Shown: positions 1,151-27,466, counted from the first letter of the stretch. The stretch: 64,000 nt of DNA from Isurus oxyrinchus (GCA_026770705.1 JANJGN010000014.1:93372001-93436000), one strand, 5' to 3'. Translations and numbers: made by a program. Notes: generated from the sequence alone by a model not told the origin.

Positions 1151-1179
1151 GTGTGCAGAGATAGGAGAATGCCTAGATA

Positions 1180-1382: not shown

Positions 1383-1399
1383 GAAGAATTCCTAACTCC

Positions 1400-2333: not shown

Positions 2334-2888
2334 AAGTTTTTAATGCAGACTTCACTATATTGAAAAACACTTCCATTCATAAAAACCCATTTACTAGATT
2401 TACATGCCTTCAACCAAATAAGGGCTTATAACAATAAACATTTCATTCATGTGCACAATCCCATATGACAATGAGCATTGGAATTCATTGTCCCACGTTA
2501 AAGAGCCTATAACCACTTGTAGCTATCAATCAAACTGTGAAATGGCTGGCACCCTGGCAGGCACTATGATACTGGCTGGTTTTGAAATTAGTAATGCAGC
2601 ACTAATCCAGCAATGGAAGTCCATTATGTCATTGGTTTATGTCAACAGAATGAAATGGCAAGCAATCATTCTTTTAACACACCAGACATTCTTTCAAAGA
2701 TTTAAAGGACAGGACTTTGAAATGCCTTGACAGCCTGAAGCTCCCTTTGATCGGTGTTTTTGATAGGTTGGCTTGACAGGTGCTTCTGACAATTTTGAAT
2801 GTTGATTTTGACAGGTCTATTGACAATTCCAATGAGCTTGACAGTAATGAGTTTATGTTCTTTTTATGCACACTTAAGCCTACTTTTA

Positions 2889-3030
2889 ATAGTTCCCTCT
2901 CCCAAAGGGCGACTGACCTACTCCAAAAGGCACTTGACCTCCACCAAAGGGTACCTTATCTACTCCAAAGGACAGCTAACCTCCCCAGAAGGGGTCCTGG
3001 GACTTGATCCAAAGAGGGACCTTACCTCTC
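2889..3030. repeat. Degenerate tandem repeat, unit about 20-22 bp
   Basis: Recurring CTCC(C/A)AAAGG..ACT(G/T)ACC units. Confidence 0.55.
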
Positions 3031-3874
3031 CCTATTGTTGGATAAAGGTATCAAGGGAAATGGTTCAAAGGAGCTGATGCAGAGATCAGCTTTGGCCTGG
3101 TTGAATGGCAGAACAGGCTTGAGAAGCTGAATAATCTACAAAAGATCCTATGTTACTATGCAAGTGACACCCAGGAACCTTTGGAATTGGAATCAGAAAA
3201 TTCGGCCCCCTGTTTCAGGAACTTCCCTAAAATAGAAAGATTGTCATTGAGGCATAGGGTCATAGAGCAGGGATTTCTCTCGGTGGGGAGAAACAAAGGT
3301 TGGAACCATTTCCAGGCCCAGAGCACACCCTCAGTGGGAAACAGTCACCTGCCCAATTGTCATAAGAATGCCCTTTAATTGGCCTGATGATGGATTCACC
3401 ATCCAATGAAACTCGGCAGATGGGCTCTTGAAGCTGAAGGTCTAATCAGAGGCCTTCCAGCTTGAAAGGAACAGCAAGTTAAAATGGAGGATAAGAAAGA
3501 GAGAGGGCACTTCAAGATGGAGGCACTCTCTCTCCAACTTTAGACTCTTTGATGTGGGGCTATTATTTCCAGTGCTGTGCATATGATTGAAATGTTTGTT
3601 GCTATAAGAACTTATTTGGTTGAAGGCATGTAAATCTAGTAAATGGGTTTTTATGAATGAGAGTGTTCCACAGAACATAAAGGCCTTATGTCACATAGCT
3701 CCATGGGTATACTGAAAGATGATCTGGTGGCTTGGTTATTTGCAGGAGGAGCTGGTTCCCTCACGGTACCCATAAGTCTAGTTTTCCAAGTAGTCAATTA
3801 TTTCTCCTCCTCTTCCTCCTCTAACAAATAAGTGATAATGATGGAAACACCCATGGGAGAAGACTATTCAGCCA

Positions 3875-4242
3875 ATCTGGAGATTTGATTAAGGTGTACA
3901 AGATTATTTCAGGTTTAGATAAGGGAGACAGAAAAAATGGCCCCGATAAGTATTTGTACAAGAACTAGGGGACACAAATATAAGCTGTTGCACAAAAGTT
4001 GCGGGGGGGTGGGGTGGGTTTTGAGGAAGAACTTTTTAATGCAATGAGTGGCAATGACCTGGAACTCGCTGTTTATGAGACTGGTGGAAGCAGAGATGAT
4101 CAATTATTTCCAAAGGAAATTAGATAGATACTTACCTCGCAGGGCTACGGGATGGAGTAGAGGAATGATGCTGACTGTATTGCTCCACAGAAAGCTGACA
4201 TGAGCTCGATGGGCCAAATGGCTTTCTTCTCAGTGATAATGA
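3875..4242 (+). mobile_element. CR1 LINE 3' end
   Basis: GDLIKVYKII.GLD..RTRGHKYK motif followed by the CR1 3' hairpin region GATGGGCCAAATGGC. Confidence 0.75.
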
Positions 4243-4244
4243 TG

Positions 4245-4907
4245 GCAGGGTCAGATTCAAGGCAGGTAGGTTCTAAAAATAGCCCTGCCACTGGCATGTT
4301 GGTTCCCTGGCTCCATCCCACATCTGGGATATGTTCGTAGAAGTGGGATTGGGGTGTGGTAGGGCCAACCCTGACACCCTGACACAGCTCATTAAAAGCG
4401 TTTTGTGGCCAAATAAATGAAACCAATTGAAATCTTCCAGTCAGCGTCTGGGTCCCCACAGACAGTGGGGCCAATTTAGGTGCTTGGAGTTGGCTTCCCT
4501 GTGGCAGAATGGGGGGTGAGAGGCAGCCATTCAGGCAGATCTAGAGGCCCTCCAAGTCCATCTGGGTGCAGGAACAGCCACAGGTTTCCCTGTCAAAGGA
4601 AATTCCCCCAGCAGCAATGGCCAAACTGCAAGATCAATTTTTTATTTTAAAAACTTAAATAAAGTTGGAGAGAAAGTGCCTCCAATTTGAACTGCCCTCT
4701 CTCTTTCTTACCCTCCATTGCAGCTTGCTGCTCCTTTCAAGCTGAAAGGCCTCTGATTAGACTTACAGCTTCAAGAGCCCATCAGCAGAGTTTCATTAGA
4801 TGGTGAATCCATTTATTGGGCTGGTGACTGTTTCCCACTGAGGGTGTGTTTGGGGCCCGGAAATGATTCCGACCTTTGTTTCTTGCCACCAAGAGAAATT
4901 TCTGCCC
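4245..4907. mobile_element. Harbinger-type MITE (family 3)
   Basis: Right TIR AAATTTCTGCCC. Interior resembles 23625-24270, 39195-39961 and 61030-61722. Confidence 0.55.
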
Positions 4908-4962
4908 TGTGACCCTATGCCTCTATGTCAATCTTTCTATTTTAGGAAATCCCTGAAACAGG

Positions 4963-6228
4963 GGGTAGAATTTTCTGCCCCAATTGGTGTTGGACATCAT
5001 GGTGGGAAGGCCAAAAATTGGTTTCATTGTGTCATGAAACCAGTTTGTGATTGTCTGTCCCACCCATCAATGGCAGGCCATGTTTCCTGCCAACGCACAT
5101 CAGGAATGTCATTTCAATACATCTGCATATAATTATGAGCCCTGCTTGCCGGAAATATCCACCCACGTTGGATCATCTGGGCATGTCAGCGTGATTGCAC
5201 GCCAACAAATTTCATAACTGTACATAAGCGACCTGCACCTGCCGAGCTGCACTTCGCTCGGCACTTCAAGTCTCATTTACCAACCTCGTTTCGGGCAGCG
5301 CTTGTGGTCATCAGCGCCAGGCTTCATAGGCAGCACCATATCACTTTTAGGGGGGCTCACGGGCAGGTCTCTACCTACCAGACCAGCCATAAGGCCGGGG
5401 TGGCTTTTCAATGGCTGCATGGCTAGGGCTTGCTTGGGGAAGGGGGACAGATGGCTTTAGACAAGGGAAGAGGCTGCAGAGTGAGGGCTGTACTGAGGAA
5501 GGGGGCTATTCAAGGTTGTGTGCGGTGGCACATGTTGATCTGTGAAAGTGGCCTCAAGATGGTGAGGGCTGAGTAGGCAGACTCCAGAGGAGATGAGGCC
5601 AGGTGGAGATGTGAGTGTGTATGAGAGAGTGAGTGATGCTGTCCCTTGAGCTGGCAGTGAGTGAGATGCCCGTGAAAGTGTGATTGCTTTGTGAGTGTGT
5701 GAGCTTAGAGTGATAAGATGGTTGCCTTACCCTGGCAGCATGGATAAGATCATTCATCCTCTTTCTGAACTGTATGGCTAGCCTCTTCTGTGCTGTGTTG
5801 GCACTAGCCACCACTGCCACCACCTCCCAAGCTAGAGTGGTGAGATTATTGGACGTCCTGTGGCCAGAGAAGGGGTGGAGTACATCATGGCGGGCCCCTG
5901 AAAGACATTCCAGTGATAGGTCACGGAGCTTTCCTTGGCTTTCAGGGCCATGTCTTCACTGGAGCAGCCCTGGGTTGCAAGCATTGAGAAATGTGTGCGT
6001 GGCTACAGTTTAGATATTGCACCCAGAGTGAAGAAACAGTGAAGTAATAGCGTGGCGGATGATTCAGAGGCTGCCCGCCAGTGAGACGGCATGTATCCTA
6101 TAGCTGCTTAATTAATGAGGTGGGAAGTAGGCGATATGGCATGAAAACCTGCCATTGAGGCTAAAGGGTAAAATGCTCTTTTACGTGGTCACTACTGCAC
6201 TTAGTGCAAATCTGGGACGATTCCGCCA
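4963..6228 (-). mobile_element. Non-autonomous Harbinger family-1 deletion derivative (about 1.27 kb)
   Basis: Termini GGGTAGAATTTTC and GGGACGATTCCGCC. Colinear in reverse with 47845-50237 once that element's nested insert is removed. Confidence 0.8.
5731..5951 (-). pseudogene. Harbinger Myb/SANT-like ORF, exon 1 remnant
   Basis: WEVVAVVASANTAQKRLAIQFRKRMNDLIHAAR followed by a GTAAG donor. Confidence 0.75.
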
Positions 6229-6829
6229 AAGGAATGGTCTTGGGGAGCCTTTTAAGTCAAACCAGTTGACACCAAAATATAGGCAAAAATGTCTTCACAA
6301 AAGACCAATCCAAAGTAAAGTGATTAACTTTTTTTCTTTATTCTTCTATGGGATGCTGGCTTCACTGGCGTTTGTTGCCTAGGTAAAGCATGTGGGAAGA
6401 TTCTATTTCACTTGTTTAATAGGAAGTCAGGAACAGCAAGTTGAGCATGGCTTTTTTTTACCTCTTTCTCCCTGGTTTACATCTGGCACATTCCCTCTTC
6501 AGCACTTTAAACACTTTCTTCCTCCAAAACACATGCTTTTCCAACAGAAGCTTGGCAAACTGATGTAACTCATTCCACTCACCTAGTACTGCCACCCTTA
6601 CAAACAGACACTAACACTAACCTGTGTCTATCTGGTAGCAACTACTAAGCATTTCACTTCTCTGCTGACTGATTTCACATTTCATAGTAGAGCAATGTTC
6701 TTGCAGATGATCAACTCCCCATGCTACTCGCACTTGCTGCTTCTCCCTCTCAGCATGTACCATAAATGAACCTACTTCATGCAGTTGCTCAAACCTTTAC
6801 AACAACCATTTACTCACTCCCTCCCTTCT

Positions 6830-6965
6830 GCAGGAGAAGCTGGCTCACAAAAACCCAAGAGGTGACCAGAACCAGGAGAGAGCCAATCTCCATCCAGACT
6901 CTCACCCAGATGGAGGAGGAATCTGAATACATGATAAGGGACTGCTGGCAATGTCGAGGCTGAAG
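6830..6965 (+). pseudogene. Older Harbinger Myb/SANT exon 2 remnant
   Basis: CTGCAG|EKLAHK..RT..PISIQTLTQMEE matches exon 2 at 13685, 21482, 26229 and 41891. Confidence 0.55.
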
Positions 6966-7749
6966 GACTTGCTCAAAAGTATGTCTACCTATTAATGATA
7001 CCATTTTCTCAAAGAATAACATGTACAGGCAATGTGGCAGTCTGCTGCTGTAAAGTGCTGCCATCTCCTGCTACTGCCTAGCCTTTTCATGCCATGTTAA
7101 TCCTTGTTCCTTTCCTCTTTTTCTAGATTTATCTGAAAACCTGGACTCTGCGAGTTGGAGAGAGACAATTGTCCCAAGAAGCACAATCCTTTGCTGTATC
7201 CCTCCCAAGTTCCAGCATGCAAATAAGCAAGTCCTTGAAATCCTGGGATTGTATCAAAAGTGTATGTGACATAATGGGTTTCTTCCCTCATTTCATGCCT
7301 GGAAACAAACAATGCCCAGTCACCCCAGAGAGGGATATCAGGATCACTGTGTATTTCTAATTCTCCTTTCTGTTTCGGATTTTCAACATTTCCAGTGTTT
7401 TTTCTGTCACAACATGAATTAATTGTCTGGATGTTGAGGAAGACAGTGGTGACACAGCTGCTCTCCATCTCACAAATATTCAACAATTATTCTATACAGT
7501 GTTTGCTCACCCATAATACCTTGCTTTGTCTTTAAATCTACATTCAGCACACAGCAGCCAGGTGAGTTTATGCAATCAGACAAATCTTTTAACCACCATT
7601 CTCTTTAGGTATTAGCATAAGTACTGCCCGTGGCTCACAGCCACAGTGGGCAACAACCCTGGTTCAAAAATTTGCTTCAAATGGGGAAGTTTGGCCTCTC
7701 AGGAGATTATGCAAATGGTCACATTACTCTATAACAGCTGTGTTTTTAA

Positions 7750-7865
7750 TTATTAATTGATTTTCTGGGATTGGGCATCTCCCATAAGGCTGACATTTGT
7801 TGCAAATCCCTAGTTGTCCTAAGAAGGTGATGGTGAGTCTTCGTGTATCCAATTATCTCAATGGA
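7750..7865 (-). mobile_element. 3' tail fragment of a CR1/L2-superfamily LINE
   Basis: Reverse complement resembles the 3' end of the LINE at 57600-57707. Similar pieces lie at 6330-6385 and 25036-25125. Confidence 0.55.
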
Positions 7866-8426
7866 TTTATAAAAAACTGGGCGGAATTGTCCCAGTATTG
7901 CAATAAGTGCGGTAGCGGGCGTGAAAATGACATTTTGCCTGCTGGCCACGATGGGGGGTTTTTGTGCTCTGTTGTCCCTTTCCCGCCTCATAAATTATGC
8001 AGTCACAAGAAACACACCATCTCACTGGCTGGTGGCCTCTGATTTGCCCGTCACAACATTACCCCACTGCTTCCTCACTCTGGGTGCCGTATTTAGGACA
8101 GCAGCTGTGTCACCACTGTCTTCCTCAACATCCAGACAATTAATTCATGTTGGGACAGAAAAAACACTGGAAATGTTGAAAATCTGAAACAGAAAAGAGA
8201 ATTGGAAATACGCAGGGATCCTGATATCCCTCTCTGGGGTGACTGGGCATTGTTTGTTTCCAGGCATGAAAATGAGGGAAGGAATCCATTATGTCACATA
8301 CACCTTTGATACAATCCCAGGATTTCAAGGACTTGCTTATTTGTGTGCTGGAGTTTGGGAGGGATACAGCAAAGAATTGTGCAGCAGTGCACACAGTTCT
8401 CAATGCACAGCCCAGGACCACTCCAG

Positions 8427-8725
8427 TTTTATACTTTTGGGTATCAGGTTCCCTTTGTCTGGTGAATGCTAGCTGCCCCCTTGATATTAAAATATTAGTT
8501 GGTGCTTGAAACAATATAGGCAGAAAGACCAATTAACTGAACAAACACTGGCGGTTTATTGGAACTAAGAACAGAGCACTAACACCATGCGTGCTTCTTC
8601 AATCAGCTCCAGCTGTAGAACTACCATTACCCAAGAAGGCCACACTGTGTAGCGATTGATCAATACAGTCACATGGTCAACTAACTACATTCTCTTAATG
8701 GTACATAGTATTCCACTGTACCACA
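8427..8725 (-). repeat. 3' LTR of the Gypsy element
   Basis: Direct repeat of 12880-13166. Starts TGTGGT on the minus strand immediately after the PPT. Confidence 0.9.
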
Positions 8726-8738
8726 TCCCTCCTCCTTT
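8726..8738 (-). other. Polypurine tract
   Basis: AAAGGAGGAGGGA on the minus strand, abutting the 3' LTR. Confidence 0.85.
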
Positions 8739-8799
8739 ACTTGAAATTACAATTGACAAGCATCACAACATCCCAATTATTTACATGAGTAACTTATGA

Positions 8800-11700
8800 G
8801 TCAAGTCTCTCAGGAGGCTTCCTCAGAAGTGTTGAGTGTCGTAGCTCAATGGCCTTGGCTGATTTTTCCGAGACCCCATTCTCAGTGGTCAACTGTACAG
8901 CAGGCTCTTCGGTGGAAGTGGGCAACTTTGTGTCTTCGACCTGCTCGGGTCCAACAGGCCCCACCAGTACTTCCAAATCATGTGATATTTCTTCCACATG
9001 TGGTGCAGACTCAAACGTAAATGATGATGGCATTCCTTCTTGTGGGGCTGCCTCTCTTCTCCGGAGATAATCCATGTATCATCTAATTATTCTGCCATTT
9101 ACCGACCCATTAAGTCATGGCACTCACTTCACCTAACAGCCAATTGGGCCCATCTCCAAAGTTCTTCGCGAGAACTGTGTCTCCCACCATGAAATTTCTT
9201 TCATGATTATGGCCATAATGTCTAGCCTTCTGGGCCTCTTGACTTCTCTCTACCCTCCCCTCTATATTCGGCCTGATAAGAGTTAGGCAGGTGCAGAGAC
9301 GACCTTCATTAGTAATTCAGTGGGGGTGATACCGGTGGCTGTGTGTGGCATTGTCTGGTAGGTGAACAGGAACCAGGACAATCTGGTGCTAATGGAATAG
9401 CCATCCAGCTTTTTCATCCCGGACTTAAAAGTTTGGACTGCCCACTCAGCAAACCATTAGAGGCGGGGTGGTAAGGCAAGGTTTTGATATGAATTATTCT
9501 GTTGAAGGTTGTAAACCTGTGGAGCTCCCCACTGGTAAATGCAGTCTCGTTGTCTGATTGGAGCACTGCTGGTAACCCGTACACTACAAAACTCTGTTAC
9601 AAATGGCCTATGGGGGCAGGTGACTGGACTTTGTAGACATCCATCCACTTAGAGTGGGCATCCATTAGTAAAAGGAACATCGTGCACAAGAAGGGCCCCA
9701 CGTAATTGATGTGGAGGCACACCCATGCCTGCCCCGGCATTTCCTAGGAGTGCAATGGTGCTAAGGGGGGTAGTTTTTGAACCTGCTGGCATTGAAGACA
9801 ACTTTTGTCTAGGGTTTTGATGTCTGGATCTATCCCTAGCCCCCACAAGTAGCTGTGTGTGAGCATTTTCATCCTACTAATGCCAGGGTGAGCGCTATGT
9901 AACTCGGTCAGTAATGGCCTTCACTCTCTCGGGGGCACGATATCCCTTGCTTCCCAGAGCAACATGCTGTCCTGGCAGGTGAGTTCATATCTGCAATTGA
10001 AATAGGGCTTCATGTCATCAGACTTTGGCTCGCCTGACCATCCATTCAAGACCTATCTCGGATGTGAGATAAAAGTGGATTCAGCTTGCCACTCACAGAT
10101 TTGTTTGGCCTGGACAGAGAGGAATCCAAAGAATTTAGCACAAGACAAGTTCCTGGGGAATTGGAACCTACACGTTATCTAGCAGGAGGGAGCAGCTTAG
10201 CATGTCAGCATGTGCAATCTGGCTTCCCAATTGGTGAATAAAAGTATATTTGTAAGCAGCCAATATCAGTGCCCACCTCTGGATGTGAGCAGATGCGATG
10301 TGGGGTATCGCCTTATCCTCCCCAAATAACCCCAGCAGAGGCTTGTGGTTGGATACAATGTGAAAATGGCGACCGTGGAGGTATTGATGGAATTTCTGAA
10401 CACCAAACACAACAGACAAGTCCTCCTTCTCAATTGGAGAATATTGTCACTCTGCAGCACTGAGTATGTGAGGTGTATAACCAATGGATCATTTGGAGCC
10501 AGCCGCCATCTAATGTGAAAGTATAGCCCCTACTCCAGAAGGGCATGTGTCACAAGTTGAAATCAATTATTTTCTTTGGGTCAAAGTGGACTAGTAGGGC
10601 TGATGATCTTAAAAGTTGCTTTACATTCGGAAATGCATCCTAGTGCGGAGTTTGCCAAATCCAATTTTTGGTTTCTCCTAAGCAATGCGTATAATGGAAC
10701 CAGTACAGTTGATAGATTTTGGAGAAATCGCCCATAGTAGTTTATCATGCCTAAGAAGGCCTTTAGTTCTGTAGTGTTTCCTGGTGCAGGTACCTTGTGA
10801 TTAGCCTTGACCTTTCCTTCCACGGGAGGCAGGCCTTATGGCTCAAGTAGACTACCTCTGGCTTGGAAAACACATTTTCTCGCTGCAAGCACACCCCGGC
10901 TTATGAGAAGCATTTCAGCACCTCCTCCAAATTAGCTAAGTTTTCTTTGTCAGTCCATCCAGTGACTAAGACCTCATCCAAATAAACAATGACATGGGGC
11001 AGTCCCTGAAGCAGGTAATGTATGGTACGCTGGAAAATAGCACATGCTGATGAGACCCCAAAGGGTAGTCGAGTATATTGATACAATCCTTGATGTGTAT
11101 TAATGGTCACGAATTCCCTAGAGCCTTCTTCTAACTCTACCTGCTGGTAGGCATGGCTCATATCATGTTTTGAATATGTGATACCCCTGCCAATTTTGAG
11201 TATATTTCATCAATCTTTGGTATCGGGTGTCTATCAAGTTTGGCCACTTTGTTTACAGTTAACTTATAGTCACCGCATAAGCGAACACTTTGGTCTGGCT
11301 TCAGTATAATGGGTGCTGCCCACTCGGAAAATTGCACTGGTTGTGAGATACCCAACTTTTCCAGCCTGTTTATCTTGGCCTCACCCTTGTCTCATAGTGC
11401 ATAAGAGACTGGTCTGGCTCTGATAAATCTGGAGATTGTGTTAGGGCCCACATAGAATTTGGCTTATAGTCCACGAATCCTTTCTAGCTCATCACTGAAA
11501 ATGGAAGCGTACTTTTGTAACAATTCCTGTTAGCTTCTCATTCTGGTTTGAAAAATCTCGGCCCATTGCAATTTAATCTTTTTGAGCCAGTTGCGATCAA
11601 TTAAATTGGGGCTCACCTCAGCTACTACTATAAGGTGTAAATTTGTAGACTGATCCCCTACTGCACCAAGACTTGACATATCCATATCACCTATATTTCT

Positions 11701-12758
11701 TCGCCTGTATATGCTTTTAATTTAGTCTCTGATGCTTCCAAACCTAAAGGATGCACTCCTTTATTTAAGTATCTGAACGTATGTTCTCCTATGACAGACA
11801 TTGATGCCTCGGTATCGACCTCCAACTTGATGGGTTGTTCATTGGCTCTAATGACTACCTGGAATTGCTCAGTTTTACCCACTTACAGGTTGTATAATGA
11901 ATAGATGTCAGATTCTGCCTCCCCTGGTCCTTCAATGAGACAGATTTTGTGATTTCTACCTTTGTTTTTAAAATGCTGTCTCAGCCTATCCTGACGGTGC
12001 CACATTATGTGACCGTTGTGGTGGCAGAAAAAGCATTCGATATTTCTGAACTGTCGATTGGCTGCAGGCTGTCTAGATGCATTTCTCTCATTAATGTGTG
12101 GGTTTTCACTGCAGTACTGTTGCTCTTCAATGGTCTGTACATAGTGGGCATTCCCCATCTTTCTGCGGAGTCCAACATTTTTGCGCCTTTTGTTCCCGGT
12201 CCTTCCTGCCGTACAAGATGGACGGTGTCATTTTGTGTATCTTTTATTGCCTCCGAGTCTCTAACAGTGCTCTCCATGGCTTTTGCCAATTCTAATGCCT
12301 TACTGAAGTTTAGGTTAGTCTCAGATAGCAATCGCTTTTGAATAGCATCTCCCCTGATTCCACGTATCAATCGGTCTCTTAATATGTCCTTGATTGGAGT
12401 TCTGAACTCACAATATTCGTTCATTCCTTTAAAGCAGCTACATAGCCAGCGTTTGTCTCTCCTGGAAGCTTATTCCTTGAATTGAATTTAAAATGCTGCA
12501 TAGTGACTGAGGGCTTTGGCTTCAGGTAGTTTTTAACAATATTTACTAACTCGTTGAAAGTCTTTGTATCGTGGGTGTTAGGTGACGTGAGGCTGTGGAT
12601 CAGCCCATAAGGTTTGCTCCCGTGTGAGGACTAAAGAATCTCCCTCTTCTTGCCTTCCCCCACGATGTTAGCAGTAAAGAAGAACGCTAGGTATTCAACA
12701 TACTGAGACCAGTCATCGGAAACGGGTCAAATGGTTCAAGATGCTCAAACTACAGCAT
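8800..12758 (-). pseudogene. Gypsy gag-pol pseudogene (frameshifts and stops)
   Basis: gag CEF..LRDRLIRGI; zinc knuckle CFFCHHNGH; protease LEVDTEA; RT RLCGDYK/YTRLPFG/YLDE; RNase H NHKPLLGL..IQRWAL; integrase DAHSKW/SDNETAFTS/PYHPASNG. Confidence 0.9.
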
Positions 12759-12865
12759 TCTCAATGACTAAGGAGACTGCGTTTTCAAACAGCTTTCAAG
12801 GTAATGGCGAAGTAACATAGTCGGCTTACCACAGCTTTCTTGATTGCTGTTAATTGATTCAGTTT

Positions 12866-12878
12866 ATCCTTGTTGCCA
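12866..12878 (-). other. Primer-binding site, tRNA-Ser(GCT)-like
   Basis: TGGCAACAAGGAT equals TGGCGACGAGGAT (complement of the tRNA-Ser GCT 3' end) with two CpG-decay changes. Confidence 0.75.
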
Positions 12879-12879
12879 A

Positions 12880-13166
12880 TTTTATGTTTTGGGTTATCAG
12901 GTTCACTTTGTCTGGCAAACACTAGCCGCCTCCTTGATATTAGCACATTAGTTGGTGCTTGAAACAATGTAGGCAGAGAGACCAATAAACTGAATTTTAT
13001 TGGAACCAAGAACAGAGCACTAACACCATGTGTGCACCTTCAATCACCTCCAGCTCTAGACTTGTAGTTACCCAAGAAGTCTGCACTGTGTAGTGATTGG
13101 TCAATATAGTCACATGGTCAATTAACTACATTCTGTTGAAGGTACAAAGCACTCTACATTACCATA
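12880..13166 (-). repeat. 5' LTR of the Gypsy element
   Basis: Direct repeat of 8427-8725, followed by the PBS on the minus strand. Confidence 0.9.
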
Positions 13167-13178
13167 TCCAGTGAAGAT

Positions 13179-14908
13179 ATGGTCCCAAAAGCCAAGAAGA
13201 GTGCAGCCTCCGATTCAGTGATACATCCCTGGAGAGCTTTTTGGATGCCACGGAGGCCCACCACAATGTCCTGCGTCCCCACTCTGGCCGCTGGAGGCCC
13301 ATCAATCTCACTATTCCAGCTTGGGAGGTGGTGGCAGTGGTGGTCAGTGGCAATACTGCAGAAAAAAAGGTTGTCCACCCAGTGCAGAAAAGGATGAATG
13401 ATCTCATCCATGCTGCCAGGGTAAGTCAGCCATCTCATCAATCTCAACTCAAACACTCACAAGCCCATCACACATTCACTGGCATCTCACTCACTGCCAG
13501 CTAAAGAGGCATCACCACTTACTCTCTCACACATTCACTCGCATCACCACCTGGCCTGATCTCCTCTGGAGATCATCTTCTCATCCCACCCATGGCTCCA
13601 GTCAGCACTCACGCACGCCTGTCATCCTTCTCATTTGGCCTGACATGTGCCTTGCTCACACTCTCTCCATCTGTCTTTAAGCAGGACAAGTTTGCGTACA
13701 ATCAATGGGAGAGGTCCCAGACTGGGGGTGGAGTGCTGGACATCAAGGTCCTCACTCCATTCAAGCGTTGGAGCTGGCCGTAGAGGACATGGACCATTCC
13801 TGTAGCGAATGTAAGGTCAGCGGCAAGCATCCATGTGAGGATCCTGCACTGGATCATCCCCCTGTCGACACTACTCTGAGTCCATTATTCTGTGGGTAAC
13901 ATGGCACTAATAATCTCCACCTCCTTTACTAGGCACATCTGCAACGTCACTTTCAAACAACCTTGACCCTAACTCCAGTGCTGAGAGCACCTCAGATGAG
14001 GACCCTGAGGGTAGCACCATTGCAGACCCATCATGGTGCTCACTCACCACCTCACCAGTGCAGTGACACACACCTCGGTGGCATGTGGATGCAGAGCAGC
14101 CGTGGGATCACAATCTGGTGAGAACAGCACACAATCTGTCCCAGAGCAGATATAGTCAGGGACATTCTTGGTCACTGGCATTAGGGGGCCTGCTGGAGGC
14201 AAGGAATCTGCTGAGTCTGCGTTAGATGATGAACCTCTGGACTCGGTCCTCAATCAGTTGCTGGAGCTGCAAAGATAGCCATTGGAACATCTGGAAGGGA
14301 TGTCTGGTGCACGCCTCAGATTGCAAGGCACGATGGAGAAATCTGTCTACCTTCAGGCTGTGGTGATAGCACCAGCATGCTGATGCCCTGAGGTCAACAC
14401 TGGCAGGATGGTGGCTGCCATGGAGACCTTGGTCTAGGATATCGGTCTTGCACTGCTGCCTGGGCGGAACTCCATTGCTGACGCCATAGTTGGCCCCCAA
14501 CAGTGTCAACGTGAGAGGGATGTGGGGCAGCTCAATCTAACTCCAACTTCCCTTCTCCTCAAGGAGTCAGCCAGAGGCCATTGGGCACACGGAGGGAGGA
14601 GGACCAGCAGCTCGACACCCCGAGGTCATCCACCCAGGTGACTCTGGGAATGACCGGCTGATCCAACTCCCACCCCCTCTTCCTGTGGCCCCATCATCTC
14701 AAGTTCCACAGGCCGAGGAGGGTTCATCTGGCCCATAGATGGACCCTCAAAGCAGGCTAGGCCCCAACAGTTCTTGGCCCTCATGAAGATGTCCACCAAG
14801 ATCATCACAGACAGGGTGTAACAGTCAGCAGGCTGCCTCCATCTCTACTGTGGATGTCAGGGAAGCACCAAGACATAGCAGCAGGGTTAGGAAGGTTAAG
14901 AAGATGTA
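13179..14908 (+). pseudogene. Harbinger Myb/SANT-like gene, 3 exons (about 13179-13420, 13685-13834, 13933-14908)
   Basis: MVPKAKKSAASRFSD..WEVVAVVVS..QCRKRMNDLIHAAR|GTAAGT; AG|DKFAYNQWERSQTGGG. Read across frameshifts. Confidence 0.8.
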
Positions 14909-15121
14909 ACTCTTATGAGCACAAACACGTTTCCATCTGTTCCTATTCAGATGAAGTTACATTGTTTCATAGCTTACCATTGTGAGATTTGAACTCTTGA
15001 TCTTGGGGTTACAAACCCAGTACCATCTGTTTCAGATGAAGTTACATTGTTTCATAGTTTTGCCATTGTGAGATTTGAACTCTCAATCTTGGGGTTACAA
15101 ACCCAGTACCATAACCACTTA
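14909..15121 (-). mobile_element. tRNA-derived SINE with a duplicated head
   Basis: Minus strand CTAAGTGGTTATGGTACTGGGTTTGTAACCCCAAG..GAGTTCAAATC shows A/B boxes and a TGT anticodon loop. 14946-15026 is repeated at 15031-15112. Confidence 0.65.
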
Positions 15122-15592
15122 GTTGCACAGTCTGGACACAGGTGTTAATCATTTGTACATAATGTTCACTAATGTAAATAAAACCCCAAGAATGTCTCCC
15201 TGTTATGATGAGCAGTGTTCATGTCATTCAGATGTGAAACCTTAGCTCTTACACAAGATAAAGGCAGGTGTCTCAGTCCAGGGCCTCTTACCTGTGCAGA
15301 GCAAAGTGAGAGTCCGGCTTTACACTCACTGGACACATTTGTGATATCTGCACCTCGATAGTGCTTGTATTGCTGCCAGAATGTTGTGGGCAGGAGTCAC
15401 AGAATTCCATCATTCTCTTTGTGTGCTCCCAGCACCTTTGAGGTGAGGCTGGCCCCCATTTCTTCAACATCTGTGTCTGGTGACGGTGTGGTCCTGAAGG
15501 GTACAAGTGATGAAGGGTGCCAAAGGATCAGGTGCACTTAAAGTTTCACAGCTGTGTCTCCATGATATGACCCTGATCACAGACCTCAAGCA

Positions 15593-15870
15593 AGCTGCCC
15601 TCAGCCAGACAGGAGTCAGGCATTCACAGAGGCATTGTGAAGATCTATGGAGTGTCCTCTTTGCATGTCATCATCATCCTCCTGGAATCTAGCCACTATT
15701 AGGGCCTCTGCTGCGTCTTCATGACATGAGCCTGAGCACTGAGGGTATGTGCGCTGCCATCAGCCACACAGGAGTTAAATGTTCACAGATGCAAAGTGAG
15801 GATGTCAGGACTGTCCTCACTGCATCTCATCATCATCCTCCACAAATCTTGTGGCTATTAGGGCCTCATG
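15593..15870. repeat. Internal tandem duplication (about 160 bp) at the transposase 3' end
   Basis: GCTGCC.TCAGCCA.ACAGGAGT..TGTCCTC..CATCATCCTCC..CTATTAGGGCCTC occurs twice. Confidence 0.65.
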
Positions 15871-18234
15871 TGCGCAGCTGCCTCATCTGGCCTGTGCGAG
15901 GGCCTCATCGTCAGCAACCTCATCTTCAAGGACCTCACCACCCACATTCCCTTCAATGCCCTCCTCATCAGAGGAGACATGCAGCTCTTCCATCTCCGCC
16001 TCAGCCAGGTCCTCTCCCCGTTGCAGTGCCAGGTTGTAGAGCACAGCAATCAACAATGATATGTAACACCCTCTGGGAACTATATTGTAGTGCTCCACCA
16101 GGCCTGTCAAGTCACCGGAACCTCATTTTCAATATACCAATCGTTTGCTCCACCGGAATCTGGGTTGTGGGATGAGTATCATTATACCTTCGCTCTGCTG
16201 CAGTCTGAGGCCACTGCACGGACGTCATCAGCCACATCCCCTGTGGGTAGCCCTTGTTCTCGAGGAACCAACACTGCAGCTTCTCTGGACCCTGGACCAT
16301 GTCAGGGATCTGAGACCTGCTGAGGATGTAGGAGTCATGGGCCCTGGGAATTGTGCGCATACCTGCAGGATGAGTTTGTGGGGTCGCAGACAAGGTGAAC
16401 ATTCAGCAAGTGGAAGCCCTTGTGGTTCACTGTTTTAGGGATCACATCACTGCTTGTTGCCATGGAGATCTAAGCATCATGTGAGTGCAGTCAATGGCAC
16501 CCTGCACCTGTGGAAAACAAGAGACCTGCAGATATCCCAGTGCTCTTGCTTCCTGGCTTGCCCGATCCCAGTCGAAATGCACAAAGTTCTGTGCCTTCAC
16601 AAAGATGGTGTCGTGACTTCCTGGATGCACTTGTGGCTGGAGGCTTTTGAGATCCCGTACAGGTCACCTGTGGAGTTCTGGAAGGAGCCACTGGCATGAA
16701 AATTGGGCGCTGCCCAATTGGTCATTTTCACAGCCACAGGCATTGGATGTCCTTCAAGTCCAAAGTGGTGCCAAATCCTACAGCAGGTGGTATACATGAC
16801 CAACCAGTTCCCTAAACATGCGCAGTCTGTGGTGACACTGCTTCTCAGTCAAATGCCGACCCTGGGTTTAGTGAGCCACCTATGAGCAACAGCTCACTGT
16901 GGATTTTCAGCTGCGTGAGCAGGAGGCCCTGTTGCACCTTCAACTTAAGGATGGTGCTCCTCCCTTTGGTGAACCAGGCGCCTCCATCATAAGGACATAA
17001 GAACATAAGAAATAGGGACAGGAGTAGACCATTCGGCCCCTTGAGCCTGCTTCGCCATTCAATAAGATCATGGTTGATCTTCTTGTGTTTCGAGTTCCAC
17101 AAGCTCATCTAACCCTGATAACCTTTAATTCCTTTGCCTAACAAGAATCTATCTACCTCTGCCTTAAAAATATTCAATGACCCCGCCTCCACCACCTTCT
17201 GAGGCAGAGAATTCCAAAGTTTCACAACCCTCGGAGAGAAAAAATTCTCGTAATTTCTGTCCTAAAAGGGCGACCCCTAATTTTAAAACAGTGCCCCCTA
17301 GTTCTGGACTCGCCCACAAGAGGAAACATCCTTTCAACATACACCTTGTCATGGCTATTCAGGATCTTGTATACTTCAATCAAATCACCCCTCACTCTTC
17401 TAAACTCCAATGGAAACAAGCCCAGTCTGTCCAATCTTTCTCCATAAGACAACCCATTCATTCCAGGTATCAATCTAGTAAACCTCCTTTAATCTGCCTC
17501 CAATGCATTTACATCCTTCCTAAATAAGGAGACCAAATTGCGCACAGTATTCTAGGTGCAATCTCACCAATGCCCTGTATAACTGAAGCATAACATCTTT
17601 AGTTTTATGCTCAATCTCTCTCATAATAAAGGATAGCATTCCATTAGCCTTCTTAATTACTTGCTATACCTGCATTCTAATTTTTGTGACTCGTACTAGA
17701 AGACCTAGATCCCTCTGCACCTCCGAATTATGCAGCCGTTCTCCATTTAAATAGTACTCTGCTTTTTTGTCCTTCCTGCCAAAGTGAACAACTTCACATT
17801 TTCCCACATTAAACTCCATTTACCAGATCTTTGCCCACTCACTCAACCTATCCATATCCATCTGCAACCTCCTCATGTCCTCCTCAAAACATACTTTCCT
17901 ACCTCTCTTTGTGTCATCAGCAAATTTAGCAAACATGTCTTCACTCCCCTCATCTAAGTCATTGATGTAAATTGTAAAACGTTGAGGCCCCATTACAGGC
18001 CCCTATGGGAGATCACTTGTCACATCCTGCCAATCAGAAGAAGACCCATTTATGCATACTCTCTACTTTCTGCCAGCCAGCCAATCTTCTATCCATGCTA
18101 ATATGTTACCCACTACACTATGCACTTTTATTTTCTGTAATAATCTTTGATGTGGTACCTCATCATCACACTCTTCTCCTTCTTCTTTGCTCCTTGTATG
18201 CCATGAGGCATCCTGTTAAATCATCAGACCTCAT
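15817..18234 (-). pseudogene. HARBI1-type (DDE_Tnp_4) Harbinger transposase pseudogene, split by a CR1 insertion
   Basis: HPMPVAVK..NFHASGSFQ..GISKAS; FPQVQGAIDCTH; HDSYIL..WFLENKGYP..WLMT; VEQTIGILKMRFR. Confidence 0.9.
16988..18160 (-). mobile_element. CR1 LINE, 5'-truncated
   Basis: (TTCTTATG)n tail; MIPGMNGLSYGERLDRLGLFPLEFRRVRGDLIEVYKIL..GESRTRGH. Confidence 0.92.
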
Positions 18235-19014
18235 GATGCTGATGTTCTCCTCCTGCAGGATCAAAGACAGAGATGCATGGGTTAGCATATGTCTCCTAAG
18301 GACCTCTCTTGGTTAAGTCTCCAGCTCTGGCTGCGTCTCAAGGCCTCATCACACATGTGGGTGATTGTTGGCCACTGTTGGATGACCAGTGTGTACTGCC
18401 CTTCATGGCTGTCCTAAACCCCACCCACCTCCGCCCCACTCCACTTGATCGATTAGCGGCAGTTTCAGCTCACTTTTGATAAGCTTTCCCAAGTGGGTGG
18501 CCGCTTCCTTCACCCACCCCCACTCGCCCAAGGCTCCACCGACATGTGCTTGTGTACTTCCATCAGTCTGTGCTGCCTTACACATTAAAAGCATTCTGAA
18601 GGCACGTCAAATGTGAGAGGTAAATTTGACGTGGCGAGGGGGATGATTCCTGCGTGCAGGCATAATGATGAGATGCAAAAACATTTAAATTAAGTTTCCA
18701 ACATTGGATGGAGGGAAACGCAATCCACCATTGATGGGCAGAGCGGATATTCGCAAACTGGTTTCACAACGGCATAAAACCAATTTTTGGCCTTCTCGCC
18801 ATATTGTCGTTCATGCTGCCAAACATACCTGCCAGCAACGGGAGCAGAAAATTCCTCTGTGTAGAAAATAAAATTATTTGATAAAGTCTCATTTGTTAAC
18901 TGTTTATGCTTTTTTCCTCAGAGTTCCTCCTAAATGAGTGTTTTAGCTTTGACAGAAGAACAGAATAACTTGAGTTATGTATTATCTGATCAACTTAATC
19001 AACTTATTTTTAAA

Positions 19015-19721: not shown

Positions 19722-21020
19722 TGGAAACTGCAGCACAGAAACAGGCCATTCAGCCCGAATGGTTGATGACTTTGTCTATACTCTAAGCCTCCACTTAGAG
19801 TTGTCTATACTCTAAGACTTCTTTCCACCTTACTCCAATATCCTATATTTCCTTCACCCTCATGCTTGTCTCAAGTGTTCCCTTAAATGCGTCAATGTTA
19901 TTTGTTTCAACCAATCAATGAGGCAATGCATTCCACATTCTCACTACTTTCTTTTATAACAAAATTGCTCTTAAATTCTTTATTTGACCTTTATCACTAC
20001 CTTATATTTATGTTGATTACTGTAAGCTCAACCACAAGAGAAAACAATTTCTCCACACCCACCTTATTGAGCACTTTCATAATATTGAAGACTTTAATTA
20101 GTTCTCCTCATAGTTTTCTTTTATCCAGAGAAAAGACCCTTATTCACTCAAAATTTCTTGACATTGTTTCAATCCTGGCAACATCCTTGTAAATCTTTAC
20201 TGCACTTACTCCAGTACTTCAATATCCTTTGCATAGTTTGGAGGCCAGAACTGCACACAGTGGGCAGAATTTTTCTCTCATCAGGCGGGCGTGTGCCTGA
20301 CCCAGATGAGAATTAATGAGTGCACAATGACATCGGGCAAGCATCCCGATGGCATCGTGCACTCTCGCAATATTTCACTCAGTGGGCGTGCTCGAGAGGT
20401 GGCAGTGCACCCGTCAACAAGTAAGAGGTCTATTAAGGCCCTTAATCAATTAATTAATTTGGATTTGTCATTGCCCTTCCAATCGCTTGGTTAGCGAGCA
20501 GGCAAAAAGTTTAAGCAGCCTTTGGATTTTTGAGGAAACCTCATCCACAGGTGGGATGAGGTTTCCGATGTGAATTAAAAATTAAATTAAAATGTTTAAA
20601 CCTCATTTATAACATGTTCCTGCTCATGTGACAGAGTCACACAAGGAGACATGTTCACCTTATTTTTTAAATCTTCATTTGTACTGTTTGAACTCCCTGA
20701 GGCAGCTCTGTGCCTTCAGGGAGTTTTCAGCGCGCACGTGTGCTGAGTGAGATATCACAAGAGTGCGCGATGCCGTTGGGATGCGTGTCCTCCTCCCGCC
20801 CTCATCCTGGCAGCAGTCAGCGTTGTAAATTGGCCAGCCAGCGCGAAATCGCGGTCGGGGCCTGATTGCGGGGGCGGTGGGTTTCGCAACCGGTCCCGGG
20901 TCCTCCTGCCATGCCCGCCCGAGGAGGGCAAAATTCAGCCCAGTAATCCAATTTTAGTCTAACCAGGGTTCTATGTAAGGTTAATAGTACCCTTCTGTTT
21001 TTGTGTTCTATTCCTCTCTG
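19722..21020 (-). mobile_element. Old CR1 3' fragment interrupted by a MITE
   Basis: ACAGGCCATTCAGCCC tail; CCAGAACTGCACACAGT|AATCCA..CTAACCAGGG rejoins across 20262-20941. Confidence 0.7.
20262..20941 (+). mobile_element. Harbinger family-2 MITE (680 bp)
   Basis: TIRs GGGCAGAATTTT and AAAATTCAGCCC; 3-bp TSD AGT. Confidence 0.88.
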
Positions 21021-22150: not shown

Positions 22151-22266
22151 TGTTGCATCATCACTCAAATGAGCTTCTCTATTAAGTTTATCGTGGCTTC
22201 TTGTCTCTTCTTGTATGCATTTTGCCACATGTGGCTAGGATGCAGAGCTATGTCCTAAGCCAGCAG

Positions 22267-23505: not shown

Positions 23506-23624
23506 GCAAGCAGTCACCAGCATGATGTGCTAAGGACAGTCGCAAACTAACTATATATTCAATGAGTATTAACTTCTGTAGTTGTGGTAAATTTCAGCAT
23601 TGAGATACAACATTTGAAACTCTG

Positions 23625-24270
23625 AGGACAGAATTTGATGATTACCACATGGAGATTTGCAAGTGGTTGGGCCCATAAATTTTCCCAGGTGGCCTTCCCA
23701 CTGCCCTCCTGCCCACCCTGACCTGTCCACAATTTTATGTGAGGCCCAAGGCCTAGGGCGGCCCATTTACCCTTGTCCCAATTGAGATCCTTAAGTGGCC
23801 AATTATTGGATACTTAAGGGTTGCTTCGTGCCTGGCCTCGATTTTGAAACTAGCAGTAGAAGTTCAAGGGCAAGGGGGAAGCCTGGCAGACAACCCTGCT
23901 CAGACCTTAGTCAGGAGGGGTGGCGCCTCCCTCAAAGACCCCCTTTCACTTCAGACCCCAAGTCTTCCTCCATGGCCTCTACACCAAGACTCATCTCCCT
24001 CTCCACAGGCCCCATTCTCCTCCCTGCCATGAGAGCCCCCCTCCCCCCACTCCCAACCACACCCCACCCCCAACCCCCACCTCCGCGCTTACCTTGTCTT
24101 AGACCTCTAGACTTAGAGCCTGGGGATTGTTTGTAGTTCCAGTCCAGACCACTTCTACCCACTGGCATTTCTGGTGCTACAGAAATCAGATAGGCCGGCA
24201 GCTCACTGAAGTGCAATTTCTGCCTGAGTAAATGCAGAAGTCCTGTCTCCAGCCAAAAATGGCTGTGGGG
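23625..24270. mobile_element. Harbinger-type MITE (family 3)
   Basis: Starts GGACAGAATTT; interior resembles 39195-39961. Confidence 0.5.
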
Positions 24271-25630
24271 CTGTTGTGACCAGTCTCATACCTGGGCCAG
24301 ATGACATTTTGGTATCAAAACGGCAAAGTACTAAAACTGCAGGTACTACGAACCCCAGTTTTATGGCTTATGGACCGCATTTCCAGTATAACTACCAGAA
24401 TCACACCCATAGATGTTCTCTGGCACAGAATCCACTGGAGTTTGTGGGTCAGTGAGAGAGCATAATACTTGCATGAGGTTCACAAATCCAATGCTACAAA
24501 GGACATACCTCTAATGTCTACTATCTCCTCCCTGTTCACCATTAGGCAAGGGGGTTACTCTGACTTCAGCAATCACCCCCTTAGCCATACCTGCACAGGG
24601 CTGATAAAGTTTTGTTTCGGCCACCCCTGATATCATTGCCTTCAAGAAACTAGGAAATGTATTGAATTTTAAATGCAAATGAATGAAATATTTATAATAA
24701 TGGAAGTATAAATAAATCAGTGATGAGTTGAATTGTAAGTTTTAGACCTTTACCTGACTGGGCCAAATGTAGAGTCAGTGAACAAGAAACCCTCATCAGT
24801 CCATCAAGCCCATTTACTCTATGTGCCATGCATAATTTATCCGACCCTTCAATTCCCCAAAATAAGTAACTGACTACAGGTAAAACCTCTTATCAAAATG
24901 CTTTTCAGCAAATATTTATTCATCTCACTTTTAAAAGAGTTAATCATTGATTTCAATGGAAATGCTTTTTATATATCTAAACTCTTGGGGAGAAAAGTTT
25001 CTTCAAAGCACAAGTCTTGCTTGAGGCCTTTTTAAATATTCTTTCACGGGATGTGGGTGTCACTGGCTAGGCCAACATTTATTGTCCATCCCTAATTGCC
25101 CTTGAGAAAGTGGTGATGAGCTGAAACTTTCAATCCTCCAGTTCTATTACTTATCAATCTTCAATGAAAATATGGTTAATTTTTTGAGTGTTTCCTCATA
25201 AATAACGTTTAAGTTCATGTTTGGTCAGGAGTTACAAAATTGCCTTTAATAGTTTGATCTATAGTTTGTCCATCTTTGTCCAGCTGGGCTCTTTGCCTCA
25301 CTCGCCCTTCTGAACTGAAGGAGACCCCTCACAGCTCCTTTAATGCAAAAGCAATAGGTGGAATTGTGTCAGATTTGCACCAAATGCGGTAGCGGGCGGG
25401 GAAAGGATGCTCTACCCGCCGGCCGCAATGGCAGCTTCTCATGCTGTATTGTCCCAATCCCAACTCATTAATTATAAATTCCCAGGAAACATACCATTTC
25501 CATGGCAGGTGGGTTCTCATTTCCTGCCACACCATTGCCTCACTGCATCATTAAGCCAGGTACCATATTTAAAGTGCAGCCGCGCACACACCTCTCGGTG
25601 CTTCCAGCCCAGGACTGCTGCAAAGAAGAC

Positions 25631-27466
25631 ATGGCCCCGAAAGGCAAAAAGACTGCAGCTCCCAGGTTCAATGATGTATCCCTCGAGCACGTTTTGGATG
25701 TAGTGGAGGCATGTCTGCAGGATGGGCAGCAACTTCACTAATCCAGCATGATAGGCAGTGGCAGCGGCAATGCCTTGCAAAAGAGGACAGCCACCCAGCG
25801 CCACAACAGGATGAATGGTCTCATCTATTCTGCCAGGAAGGCACCAATGAGATGGGATTGGGACAATACAGCTTGAGAAGCCGCCATTGTGGCCAGCGGG
25901 TAAAGCGTCCTTTTCCCACCTGCTACCACATTCAGTGCAAATCTGGGATGATTCCACCTACTGCTTTTGAATTAAAGGTGCTGTGAGAGGGTAAGTCTCT
26001 CTCCTCATCACTCTCAACTCACACACTCACAAACCTATCACACATCTACAAGGATCTCACACCTCAAGGGACAACACCACTAACTTTCACACACACTCTC
26101 ACATCTCCATCAGGCTCATACCCTCTGGAGGTTGCGTCCTCATCCCATCCATGGCTCCGGTCACCACACAAACATTCAACACAGTGCCATGTGTCCTCCT
26201 CACACTGTCTCCATCTGTTTTCATGCAGGAGAAACTGGCTCACAGCAGTAGGGAGAGGTCCCAGCCTGGGGGTGGAGTGGCCCACATTAGGCCCCTCACT
26301 CACTTTGAGGAGTGTGCCTTCATGCTGACTGTTGAGGACGTGGACTGTGCCAGCGGTGACAGTGAGGTCAGCGACCAACATCCTTATGAGGATCCTGCAC
26401 CACATCATCCTTCTCTCAAAGCAATTGTGAGTGATCCCTCTCTTGCTTTTACCTCTGCTGCCATGCACTAATTATCTCTATTTTAGTTCACAGGGAGCTC
26501 TGCCAAATGGCTGACACCCTCAGCCAGCCAGTCCCTCAGCTCCATCCACAATCTTATCTCCAGACAAAAAGACTCCTCCTTCATTGAAGAACTGGAAAAA
26601 AGCAGCCTGGAAGACCCGTCATAGTGCTTACAAACCACTCTCCACCAGAGACACACACCTCGGTGGGACCTAGATCTAGAGCAGGCTCGAGTTCAAAATC
26701 TGGTGGTCATGTCTGCAGCAGGAGGAGGCAGGTTCAGCTAAGCTTCCCAGGACTTGGAGAACTGCTGGTAAAGAGGCATCTGTGAGGTCGGAGTCAGGTG
26801 ATGAGCCTCTAGATTCGGCCCTCCAACTCATCCTGGAGAGTCAGCAGAAGGAGGGAGAACATCGCGCAGAGCCATTGGAAGCCCTCAACAAAGTGGCACA
26901 TGGAGTGTGTCTGCCTTCTCTCTGATGAAGCTGGTGCCCACATGTGCATGTATGGAGGTCTCCATGGAGAGGATTGTGGATGCTATGGAGAACCTGGTCC
27001 AGCAGAGCGTGGAGATGCACGCAGGCCTGCACTCCATCACAGTAGCCACGGGTGAGTTCCTGCAGTGGTAATGTGAGAGGAAAACAGGGCACCTTGACAT
27101 CCCCCCAGGTGCTCCTTCCCCTCAAGGAGTCAGGCTGAGGCCCTTGGGCACCTGAAGGGAGGAGGAATGGTAGCTGAACACCCCCGGATCATGCACTCAG
27201 GAATCTCAGAGGCTGTCTTCATTTTCCAAGTCCCCTTTGCCTGTGACCCCCTCAACCTTGTCCTCTGTCACCGCTGAGAGAACAGCTGGCCCACAGGAGG
27301 ACAGCCAAAGCAAGCCAGGGCCTGCAAGGCCTGCCTCTCCAGAGGATGCACCCCAAAGTCATCAGAAGCAACAGGGCCAACCATTGCACAGGCTGTCTCC
27401 ACCCCTGCTGCAGATGTCAGGGCAACACCTAGAAGTCTAAAGCGTGCAAAATTTAAGAAATTATGA
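25631..27466 (+). pseudogene. Harbinger Myb/SANT-like gene, 3 exons
   Basis: MAPKGKKTAAPRFNDVSLEHVLDVVEA; AG|EKLAHSSRERSQPGGGVAHIRPLTHFEE; exon 3 from about 26494. Confidence 0.78.

Follow-up and report, generated by a model that had tools for sequence, protein, structure and literature searches.

A 64,000-nt stretch of the genome of the shark Isurus oxyrinchus (GCA_026770705.1, JANJGN010000014.1:93372001-93436000; hereafter, the window) holds four pairs of segments in which nearby DNA recurs in reverse orientation, and most of them touch or lie inside transposons of the Harbinger type. The question raised by this locus is whether Harbinger elements repeatedly capture inverted flanking DNA, as a preliminary description of the window had proposed, or whether they merely received copies made by another process. 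Our reading, to which we give a probability of roughly 0.65, is that the window contains three insertions of locally copied DNA left by synthesis-dependent break repair, for which the Harbingers were likely passive targets. The local origin of the copies, their insertion into otherwise collinear hosts, the scars at their junctions, their ages, and the lack of enrichment at Harbinger ends outside the window are observed directly.

Local origin of the four inverted pairs

When the window was searched against itself by BLASTN and repeat finding, all four pairs were recovered, each of them inverted: pair 1 (2366-2457/3576-3667, 91% identity over 92 bp), pair 2 (3194-3542/4660-4977, 81% identity with a 30-bp gap; 35 differences at 318 aligned sites), pair 3 (7181-7466/8096-8382, 94% identity), and pair 4 (25325-25469/25846-25990, 86% identity). 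The gaps between donor and copy (376-1118 bp) lie within the limits used for repair-mediated duplications (RDs; insert at least 50 bp, donor at a distance of more than 50 bp and below 5 kb). In the 4.98-Gb assembly, where the window lies on the contig designated C14, the arm of pair 3 had two matches, itself and its partner, by a search that may skip common words. The arms of pairs 1 and 2 were high-copy (662 and 1236 first-look candidates), and among the 40 candidates scored for each, the local partner was the best non-self match (131 bits vs at most 118 for pair 1; 347 bits vs at most 149 for pair 2). Because the pair 1 query had been defined by its local match, donor and copy were also aligned with 22 distant copies (2 loci and 20 loci); the two had five substitutions in common against the majority of the distant copies, each of which had 0-1 in common with the copy. 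For pair 4, only the local copy among the 39 non-self matches listed extended 31 bp into the flank, the next reaching 13 bp. Each of the four pairs is a local copy and not an independent insertion. The arms of pairs 2 and 4 span junctions between a transposable element (TE) and its flank, as the preliminary description had argued in rejecting independent repeat insertions. Its expectation that the duplicated segments would not be high-copy over their full length was borne out for pair 3, which has a single-copy donor, and for 31 bp of pair 4, but pairs 1 and 2 are wholly repeat-derived; the donors of pairs 1, 2, and 4 have repeat arms.

The structures are not an assembly artefact: copy and donor are 5-15% apart, and parts of the structures recur in short contigs. 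The left junction of the insert at 3185-3667 was bridged (3105-3473) by short contigs from two sources: the same species, whose sequencing run may represent the individual used for the assembly, and a related species. The latter, about 2% divergent from the window (24 differences in 1105 bases and 18 in 1051), holds copies 2 and 3, and its version of copy 3 differs from that of the window at 2 positions over 8123-8339, where copy and donor differ by 9 mismatches and a gap. The junctions of pair 3 and the donor-donor junction were unbridged, at 31 letters a side, by the 24 contig pieces listed out of about 126,000 (the junction at 3667 has 30).

Three insertion events

The preliminary description counted four separate duplications; the four pairs stand, but they represent three insertion events, because copies 1 and 2 adjoin. 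The copy of pair 1 continues, after a 17-bp skip, through 35 further homologous bases to 3541, and the copies of pairs 1 and 2 thereby abut at 3541-3542, forming one insert of about 480 bp (3185-3667) whose left-hand donor lies about 1 kb away and whose right-hand donor lies about 1.1 kb away, each copied in reverse. This insert is flanked by no recognised repeat. The final 35 bases of copy 1 (3541-3575) match the donor at 27 of 35 positions, vs 19-31 in distant copies, and have no derived changes in common with it; they are possibly a third template or the product of later decay. Two other interpretations of pairs 1 and 2 were rejected. A staggered-cut inversion would have placed each donor beside the other's copy, whereas the copies abut and the donors lie about 1 kb off, and the nearly equal gaps (1118 and 1117 bp) are a coincidence, because the equality vanishes once copy 1 is extended to 3541.

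The hosts of copies 3 and 4 are collinear across the inserts, and in alignments with sister copies the halves of the interrupted repeat are contiguous within 30 bp. At copy 3, 2-3 host bases were lost, GTGC is common to donor and host at the right junction, and in other copies of the family, from short-read contigs, three letters separate 8095 from 8380. The breakpoints are internal to the host, with a 2-3 bp gap and no target-site duplication, and copy 3 is the only window copy that consists of non-TE DNA inside an element with both terminal inverted repeat (TIR) ends and a parent nearby. At the site of copy 4, of which 114 of 145 bp are TE sequence, five sister-copy pairs overlap by 3 nt; AGG flanks the copy, yet neither copy end is a terminus. 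No A/T tail was present at any of the copy ends displayed, and those of copies 3 and 4 carry apparent microhomology, filler, or a small loss. Copy 4 was inserted exactly at GG/GTAAG (25838-25996), which resembles the splice donor of the first gene of its host; this position is probably due to chance.

Kimura two-parameter (K2P) distances between donor and copy were 0.055 ± 0.014 for pair 3, 0.093 (92 bp) or 0.142 (whole) for pair 1, 0.120 ± 0.021 for pair 2, and 0.165 ± 0.038 for pair 4. The host of copy 3 also contains a retrotransposon with long terminal repeats (LTRs), whose LTR pair had a distance of 0.187 ± 0.029, and sister Harbinger ends were separated by 0.26-0.37. Copy 3 entered a host that was already split by the LTR element, since the distance of pair 3 is below that of the LTR pair.

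Similar inserts outside the window

Local pairs were sought in a 1.6-Mb sample from seven places; sample and window together left 1,312,754 bases after masking of tandem repeats, and the unmasked portion outside the window is 1.25 Mb. Of the sampled stretches, those on contigs C12 and C1 were masked over 40% and 29% of their sequence, and the one on C6 was 94% tandem repeat and yielded no Harbinger termini. The filter gave 104 candidates, 35 local-best pairs after stricter realignment, and 29 with a gap of at most 2 kb; the 6 with larger gaps, some of them LTR-like, were left out of the enrichment test. The 29 test pairs comprise the window's four and 25 outside pairs (12 inverted, 13 direct), among which were retained three inverted (gaps of 110-290 bp) and two direct pairs that may be long-TIR elements or TE pieces, two pairs representing one event, and one pair clipped at a region start. 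Over the 29 pairs, the median arm was 144 bp and the median gap 633 bp. In sample and window together, inverted local-best pairs of at least 80% identity numbered 14 under 1.5 kb and 1 between 1.5 and 5 kb; the direct ones numbered 8 and 4, respectively. The sample filter returned about 20 local duplicate pairs per Mb.

A second two-donor insert was found at L119:6929-7292, where two upstream donors were copied, one in direct (99.6%) and the other in inverted orientation (99.2%), and the copies meet in a 3-nt overlap; the nearest called terminus is 1.6 kb away. Contigs of the related species from two studies hold the empty site, joining 6928 to 7293 with three other letters between, and the formation of such inserts continued after the split from that species. 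The locus (L119:6068-7295) is very young, clean, and datable, and would suit a study of junctions. Six outside inserts interrupt a recognisable repeat, the hosts being one Harbinger-type element, one element matching the window's long interspersed element (LINE), one like a short interspersed element (SINE) or LINE, and three unclassified repeats. Besides L119:6929-7292, three outside inserts that interrupt repeats had two full-length genome matches each; a Harbinger-type miniature inverted-repeat element, a LINE that matches the one in the window, and a non-TIR repeat of no assigned class are their hosts. Three such two-copy inserts in about 0.65-1.25 Mb correspond to 2.4-4.6 per Mb (95% range 0.5-13.5), compared with a human value of 0.62 and a zebrafish value of 0.19, both given per Mb of TE DNA (PMC2671141); the density here is possibly several times that of human, with differing pipelines and tiny numbers.

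Relation of the copies to Harbinger ends

Harbinger-type termini were called by a TIR matrix and homology (243), to which exact motif matches were added (353 in all; a reversed-motif control gave 17), and a looser motif gave 605 sites; the list is incomplete for rare families. Expected counts were obtained by sliding each pair along its own region. With the stricter set, the 25 outside pairs had an end within 40 bp, 100 bp, 500 bp, and 1 kb of a terminus in 0, 1, 4, and 7 cases, against 1.65, 3.4, 7.7, and 10.5 expected; with the looser motif, the counts were 0, 4, 12, and 15 against 2.8, 5.5, 12.1, and 15.8. When only inverted outside pairs were considered, 4 of 12 lay within 1 kb (5.0 expected). 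The trend outside the window is flat or slightly below expectation, and the enrichment near Harbinger termini that the preliminary description had predicted is absent from these independent pairs. A twofold enrichment would have been visible, whereas a weak one would have escaped, because the sample covers 1.25 Mb rather than the genome. With 317 termini considered, ends of outside events within 40 bp were lacking altogether (95% upper bound, about 0.9% for each terminus), and none of the 29 pairs, window donors included, had an end within 10 bp of a terminus; the nearest ends of the four window pairs lie at 14, 31, 34, and 217 bp. A mask of Harbinger bodies, which covered 29-37% of the DNA, was set aside for an inside-element test because it leaked into LINE and SINE sequence.

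Several observations weigh against a passive role of the Harbingers. In the window, three donors out of four have an end close to a Harbinger-type terminus, at 14, 31, and 34 bp (0.41 expected within 40 bp, P 0.003; with the looser motif, P 0.013), these P values being post hoc on the discovery set, with two of the three donors belonging to one event; the pattern of donor ends 14-34 bp from termini was not replicated among the 25 outside pairs. Every copy in the window is inverted, and a density of three such events per 64 kb has a P value of 0.025 at the outside rate, which is modest, the window having been chosen for this feature; with both orientations counted, the P value for event density is 0.14. 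Pair 4 (K2P 0.165 ± 0.038) is not clearly younger than the nearest relatives of its host (78-83% identity). Finally, many of the best 150 of 73,240 first-look candidates for a Harbinger-type transposase domain in the genome have no stop inside the domain, with open frames of up to 461 aa. Some other Harbinger families may have stayed active later, because such long open transposase frames exist.

The preliminary description had placed three of the pairs in contact with or inside Harbingers of one family; the remaining donor, donor 1, is also near a Harbinger-type end, at 34 bp, but one that belongs to another family. A Harbinger-specific recurrent mechanism is nonetheless not supported: the outside sample shows no enrichment at termini, breakpoints lie off the termini, direct and inverted copies are equally frequent, and LINE- and SINE-type repeats also serve as hosts. 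Of its two proposed sources of inverted flank, Harbinger activity or break repair, the pairs fit break repair or template switching of nearby DNA. Harbingers were probably hit because they are abundant in the window, with about 24 termini per 100 kb.

Mechanism of insertion

Under synthesis-dependent break repair, a double-strand break independent of transposase would have been followed by invasion of a 3' end into DNA 0.4-1.8 kb away and the copying of 90-350 nt, here in reverse orientation; the released end would then have annealed by 3-4 nt of microhomology, with a few bases lost or added. At 3185-3667, two templates, one per side, would have been copied and then linked, much as if synthesis had proceeded from each of the broken ends, and the two-donor inserts, seen twice, favour two-ended repair. 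Sequence alone cannot name the pathway. Template switching at a replication fork that has stalled or collapsed, by fork stalling with a switch of template (FoSTeS), break-induced replication mediated by microhomology (MMBIR), or Pol-theta-type synthesis, would require neither a two-ended break nor a transposase. Inserts made by Pol-theta are usually much shorter than those described here. The short microhomology, filler, reverse orientation, and 17-bp skip in copy 1 would fit serial switches, and in pairs 3 and 4 the donor lies upstream with the microhomology at the far junction, which could also reflect one end folding back. The two-donor insert has the sequence of its right-hand donor at the left end and that of its left-hand donor at the right end, opposite to what a simple fold-back would give; two-donor inserts are a stated prediction of two-ended repair (PMC2671141); and direct and inverted copies are equally common (13:12). 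We therefore regard fork switching as rather unlikely for these inserts and consider break repair the probable source when the two are compared.

A role for Harbinger transposase, which would have made the breaks by excision with abortive gap repair or by alternative transposition, with flanking DNA thereby taken up inside the elements or next to them, is improbable, and we are confident that no transposase was involved. It would account for the three donors that end close to a terminus, for a donor 4 made of the host's own end and flank, for the AGG repeated around copy 4 in the manner of a 3-bp target duplication, and for the overlap in age between pair 4 and the youngest relatives of its family, and the long open transposase frames in the genome are compatible with it; a transposase-driven origin is unlikely throughout, but least so for pair 4. 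Against it, duplications made by maize Ac end precisely at termini (PMC3744419), where none of the 29 pairs ends, and the hosts lost only 0-3 bp, whereas excision repair is expected to leave larger, terminal-biased deletions (PMC8277862). Also against it are the lack of outside events within 40 bp of the 317 termini, the entry of copy 3 after the LTR insertion, and the scarcity of recent Harbinger relatives, a relative at 90% identity or more being found for only 3 of 223 sampled termini vs 16 of 29 pairs. A weaker tie, in which Harbinger ends, dead copies included, influence the points at which a DNA end under repair begins or ceases to copy, would make some of the local inverted captures Harbinger-driven, as the three window donor ends 14-34 bp from termini would suggest; it would act through nicks close to the TIR or through bound transposase from younger families, and seems still more doubtful. 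Chance proximity of independently inserted abundant repeats, or assembly error, is scarcely credible. The high-copy arms of pairs 1, 2, and most of 4 would suit it, as would the final 35 bases of copy 1, which are no closer to the donor than to distant copies, but pair 3 has two copies in the genome, pair 1 has five derived changes in common, the arms of pairs 2 and 4 span junctions, local-best pairs cluster under 1.5 kb and are almost absent between 1.5 and 5 kb, and contigs of two species hold the structures. These findings rule out chance for pairs 2, 3, and 4 and, in pair 1, for 92 bp.

Relation to known duplications

These inserts are further instances of a class known since 2009 and most likely ordinary scars of break repair. 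Pace, Sen, Batzer, and Feschotte (2009) described 824 human RDs within 5 kb (mean size 162 bp, mean distance 1.2 kb), which occur in all TE classes in rough proportion and also in zebrafish and chicken; 39 of 39 proximal RDs had microhomology, filler, or a small loss at the junctions, and two-donor RDs were predicted and reported in 20 cases, with both donors local in 5 (PMC2671141). The inserts examined here share with RDs their size of 50-620 bp, copying from less than 5 kb away, interruption of TEs of every class, junctions with microhomology, filler, or a small deletion, two-donor chimeras, and, at the outside locus L119:6929-7292, an empty orthologous site, and the median arm and gap of our pairs match the means of Pace et al. 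(PMC2671141). They differ in that the chimera in the window has both donors local, as in only 5 of the 20 earlier cases, and in that the shark lineage is probably outside the earlier species set; orientation is not tabulated in the part of that article consulted (PMC2671141). Pairs 1, 2, and 4 would drop out of the earlier pipeline because it kept only single-copy donors (PMC2671141). As in Pace et al., synthesis-dependent strand annealing is the pathway that we infer from the junctions (PMC2671141).

The suggestion that such capture had not been described for vertebrate Harbingers does not hold. Tan et al. (2021) attributed single-copy Pack-TIRs to transposition-independent gap filling, and their Supplementary Data 1 lists 21 PIF-Harbinger cases from the alligator and two frog species; for 14 of these, the source lies in the same sequence, no more than about 5 kb away (PMC8277862). 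In the main text and table of that study, the word Harbinger and an orientation column, respectively, are absent (PMC8277862). The likeness to Pack-TIRs lies in nearby DNA inside a dead TIR transposon, internal breakpoints, a tiny gap, microhomology, and probable independence of transposition; in contrast to the short non-autonomous Harbinger hosts of Tan et al. (260-497 bp), the hosts here are decayed autonomous elements, copy 4 is mostly its host's own end rather than non-TE DNA, and copies 1 and 2 are not placed within a TIR element (PMC8277862). Alternative (reversed-ends) transposition of Ac/Ds likewise gives duplications near DNA-transposon ends, with endpoints precisely at the termini, an 8-bp target duplication, and sizes of 8 kb to 5.3 Mb, whereas the ends here are at least 14 bp off the termini, the copies are 90-350 bp, and no target-site duplication stands beside a terminus (PMC3744419). 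Templated insertions made by MMBIR or Pol-theta resemble these inserts in the microhomology-primed copying of nearby DNA into a junction (PMC8421209, PMC7165422). Among 20 of 40 articles on Harbinger inverted duplication or alternative transposition, judged by title and the start of the abstract, none concerned vertebrate Harbingers making inverted copies of flank, and a search for such duplications in cartilaginous fish, which most subscription papers lay outside, found only an unrelated review.

The window thus adds clean examples to the known class, including a two-donor insert with both donors local, and its analysis removes a tempting but unsupported tie to Harbinger activity; no function of the inserts is evident. 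Were Harbinger ends to steer repair templates, dead DNA transposons would gain a new means of altering the DNA beside them, an idea against which the sample weighs.

Harbinger elements and other repeats of the window

The coordinates of donors, copies, hosts, and neighbouring repeats are collected in Table 1. The DDE_Tnp_4 transposase domain (PF13359) was detected in the 7879 host and in a copy at 47845. PIF/Harbinger elements carry a second, Myb/SANT-like gene; six-frame reads of 13170-14900 and 25600-26500 gave no Pfam match, and a Pfam search of 15 open frames of at least 120 aa gave nothing useful. PIF/Harbinger elements have short TIRs that begin with G and a target duplication of 3 bp; in this family the TIR consensus is GGGCAGAATTTT, and a clean 3-bp duplication (AGT) is present only at 20262-20941, being decayed at the two hosts. 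The LINE fragment inside the 7879 host is presumably CR1-like.

Table 1. Positions of donors, inserted copies, host elements, and adjoining repeats in the window.
Feature	Position	Strand	Remarks
Non-autonomous element with Harbinger-type TIRs GGCCCAGATTTT	1135-2332		Right end 34 bp from donor 1; assigned to Harbinger by TIR likeness only
Older high-copy repeat holding donor 1 in native context	2333-3031		3231 first-look candidates; sampled region L171 aligns over 2334-3031
Donor 1	2366-2507	+	2366-2457, local source; 2458-2507, homologous, without shared derived changes
Inserted copy of donor 2, left part of two-donor insert	3185-3542	-	Contigs from the two species cross the left junction
Inserted copy of donor 1, right part of two-donor insert, adjoining copy of donor 2	3541-3667	-	
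Donor 2	4660-4986	+	Right part of a repeat (about 4280-4962) and first 14-23 bp of the next Harbinger TIR
Internally deleted Harbinger	4963-6228		TIR-like ends at 4963 and 6228; 73% to copy at 47841-48798
Donor 3, single-copy DNA	7181-7466	+	
Decayed autonomous Harbinger, host of copy 3	7879-18857		Broken DDE_Tnp_4 transposase, minus strand, near 16040-16350; PF13359, E 1.2e-10
Inserted inverted copy of donor 3	8096-8382	-	217 bp inside left end of host
Decayed Gypsy-type LTR retrotransposon inside 7879 host	8423-13169	-	LTRs 8423-8728 and 12876-13169; K2P 0.187; RVT_1, RT_RNaseH, integrase
LINE fragment with reverse transcriptase inside 7879 host	16995-18165	-	
Donor 4	25325-25469	+	31 bp of flank and first 114 bp of Harbinger, including TIR
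Decayed Harbinger, same family as 7879 host, host of copy 4	25356-29346		
8-nt filler (25838-25845) and inverted copy of donor 4	25838-25990	-	482 bp inside host; AGG on both sides

Two observations concern the insertion sites of Harbinger-type elements. One older repeat is joined at an identical position by two different TIR elements, at window position 2332 and at L170:1925, which suggests a preferred insertion site. Genome-wide copies of the family at 4963-6228 continue past the TIR (window 6224-6240) into a common flank consensus (AATGTCTTT-like); judged from these alignments, this would be a strong target-site preference, and the flank resembles the right half of the palindromic Harbinger3_DR target (PMC3016246).

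Elsewhere in the sample, L089-L108 (C6:120.0-120.2 Mb) form a 200-kb stretch that is 94% tandem repeat. An abundant, near-palindromic repeat of about 200 bp, which we take to be a Penelope-type end, occurs in the window at 1175-1384 and 56739-56971 and has about 100 distant matches in the sample.

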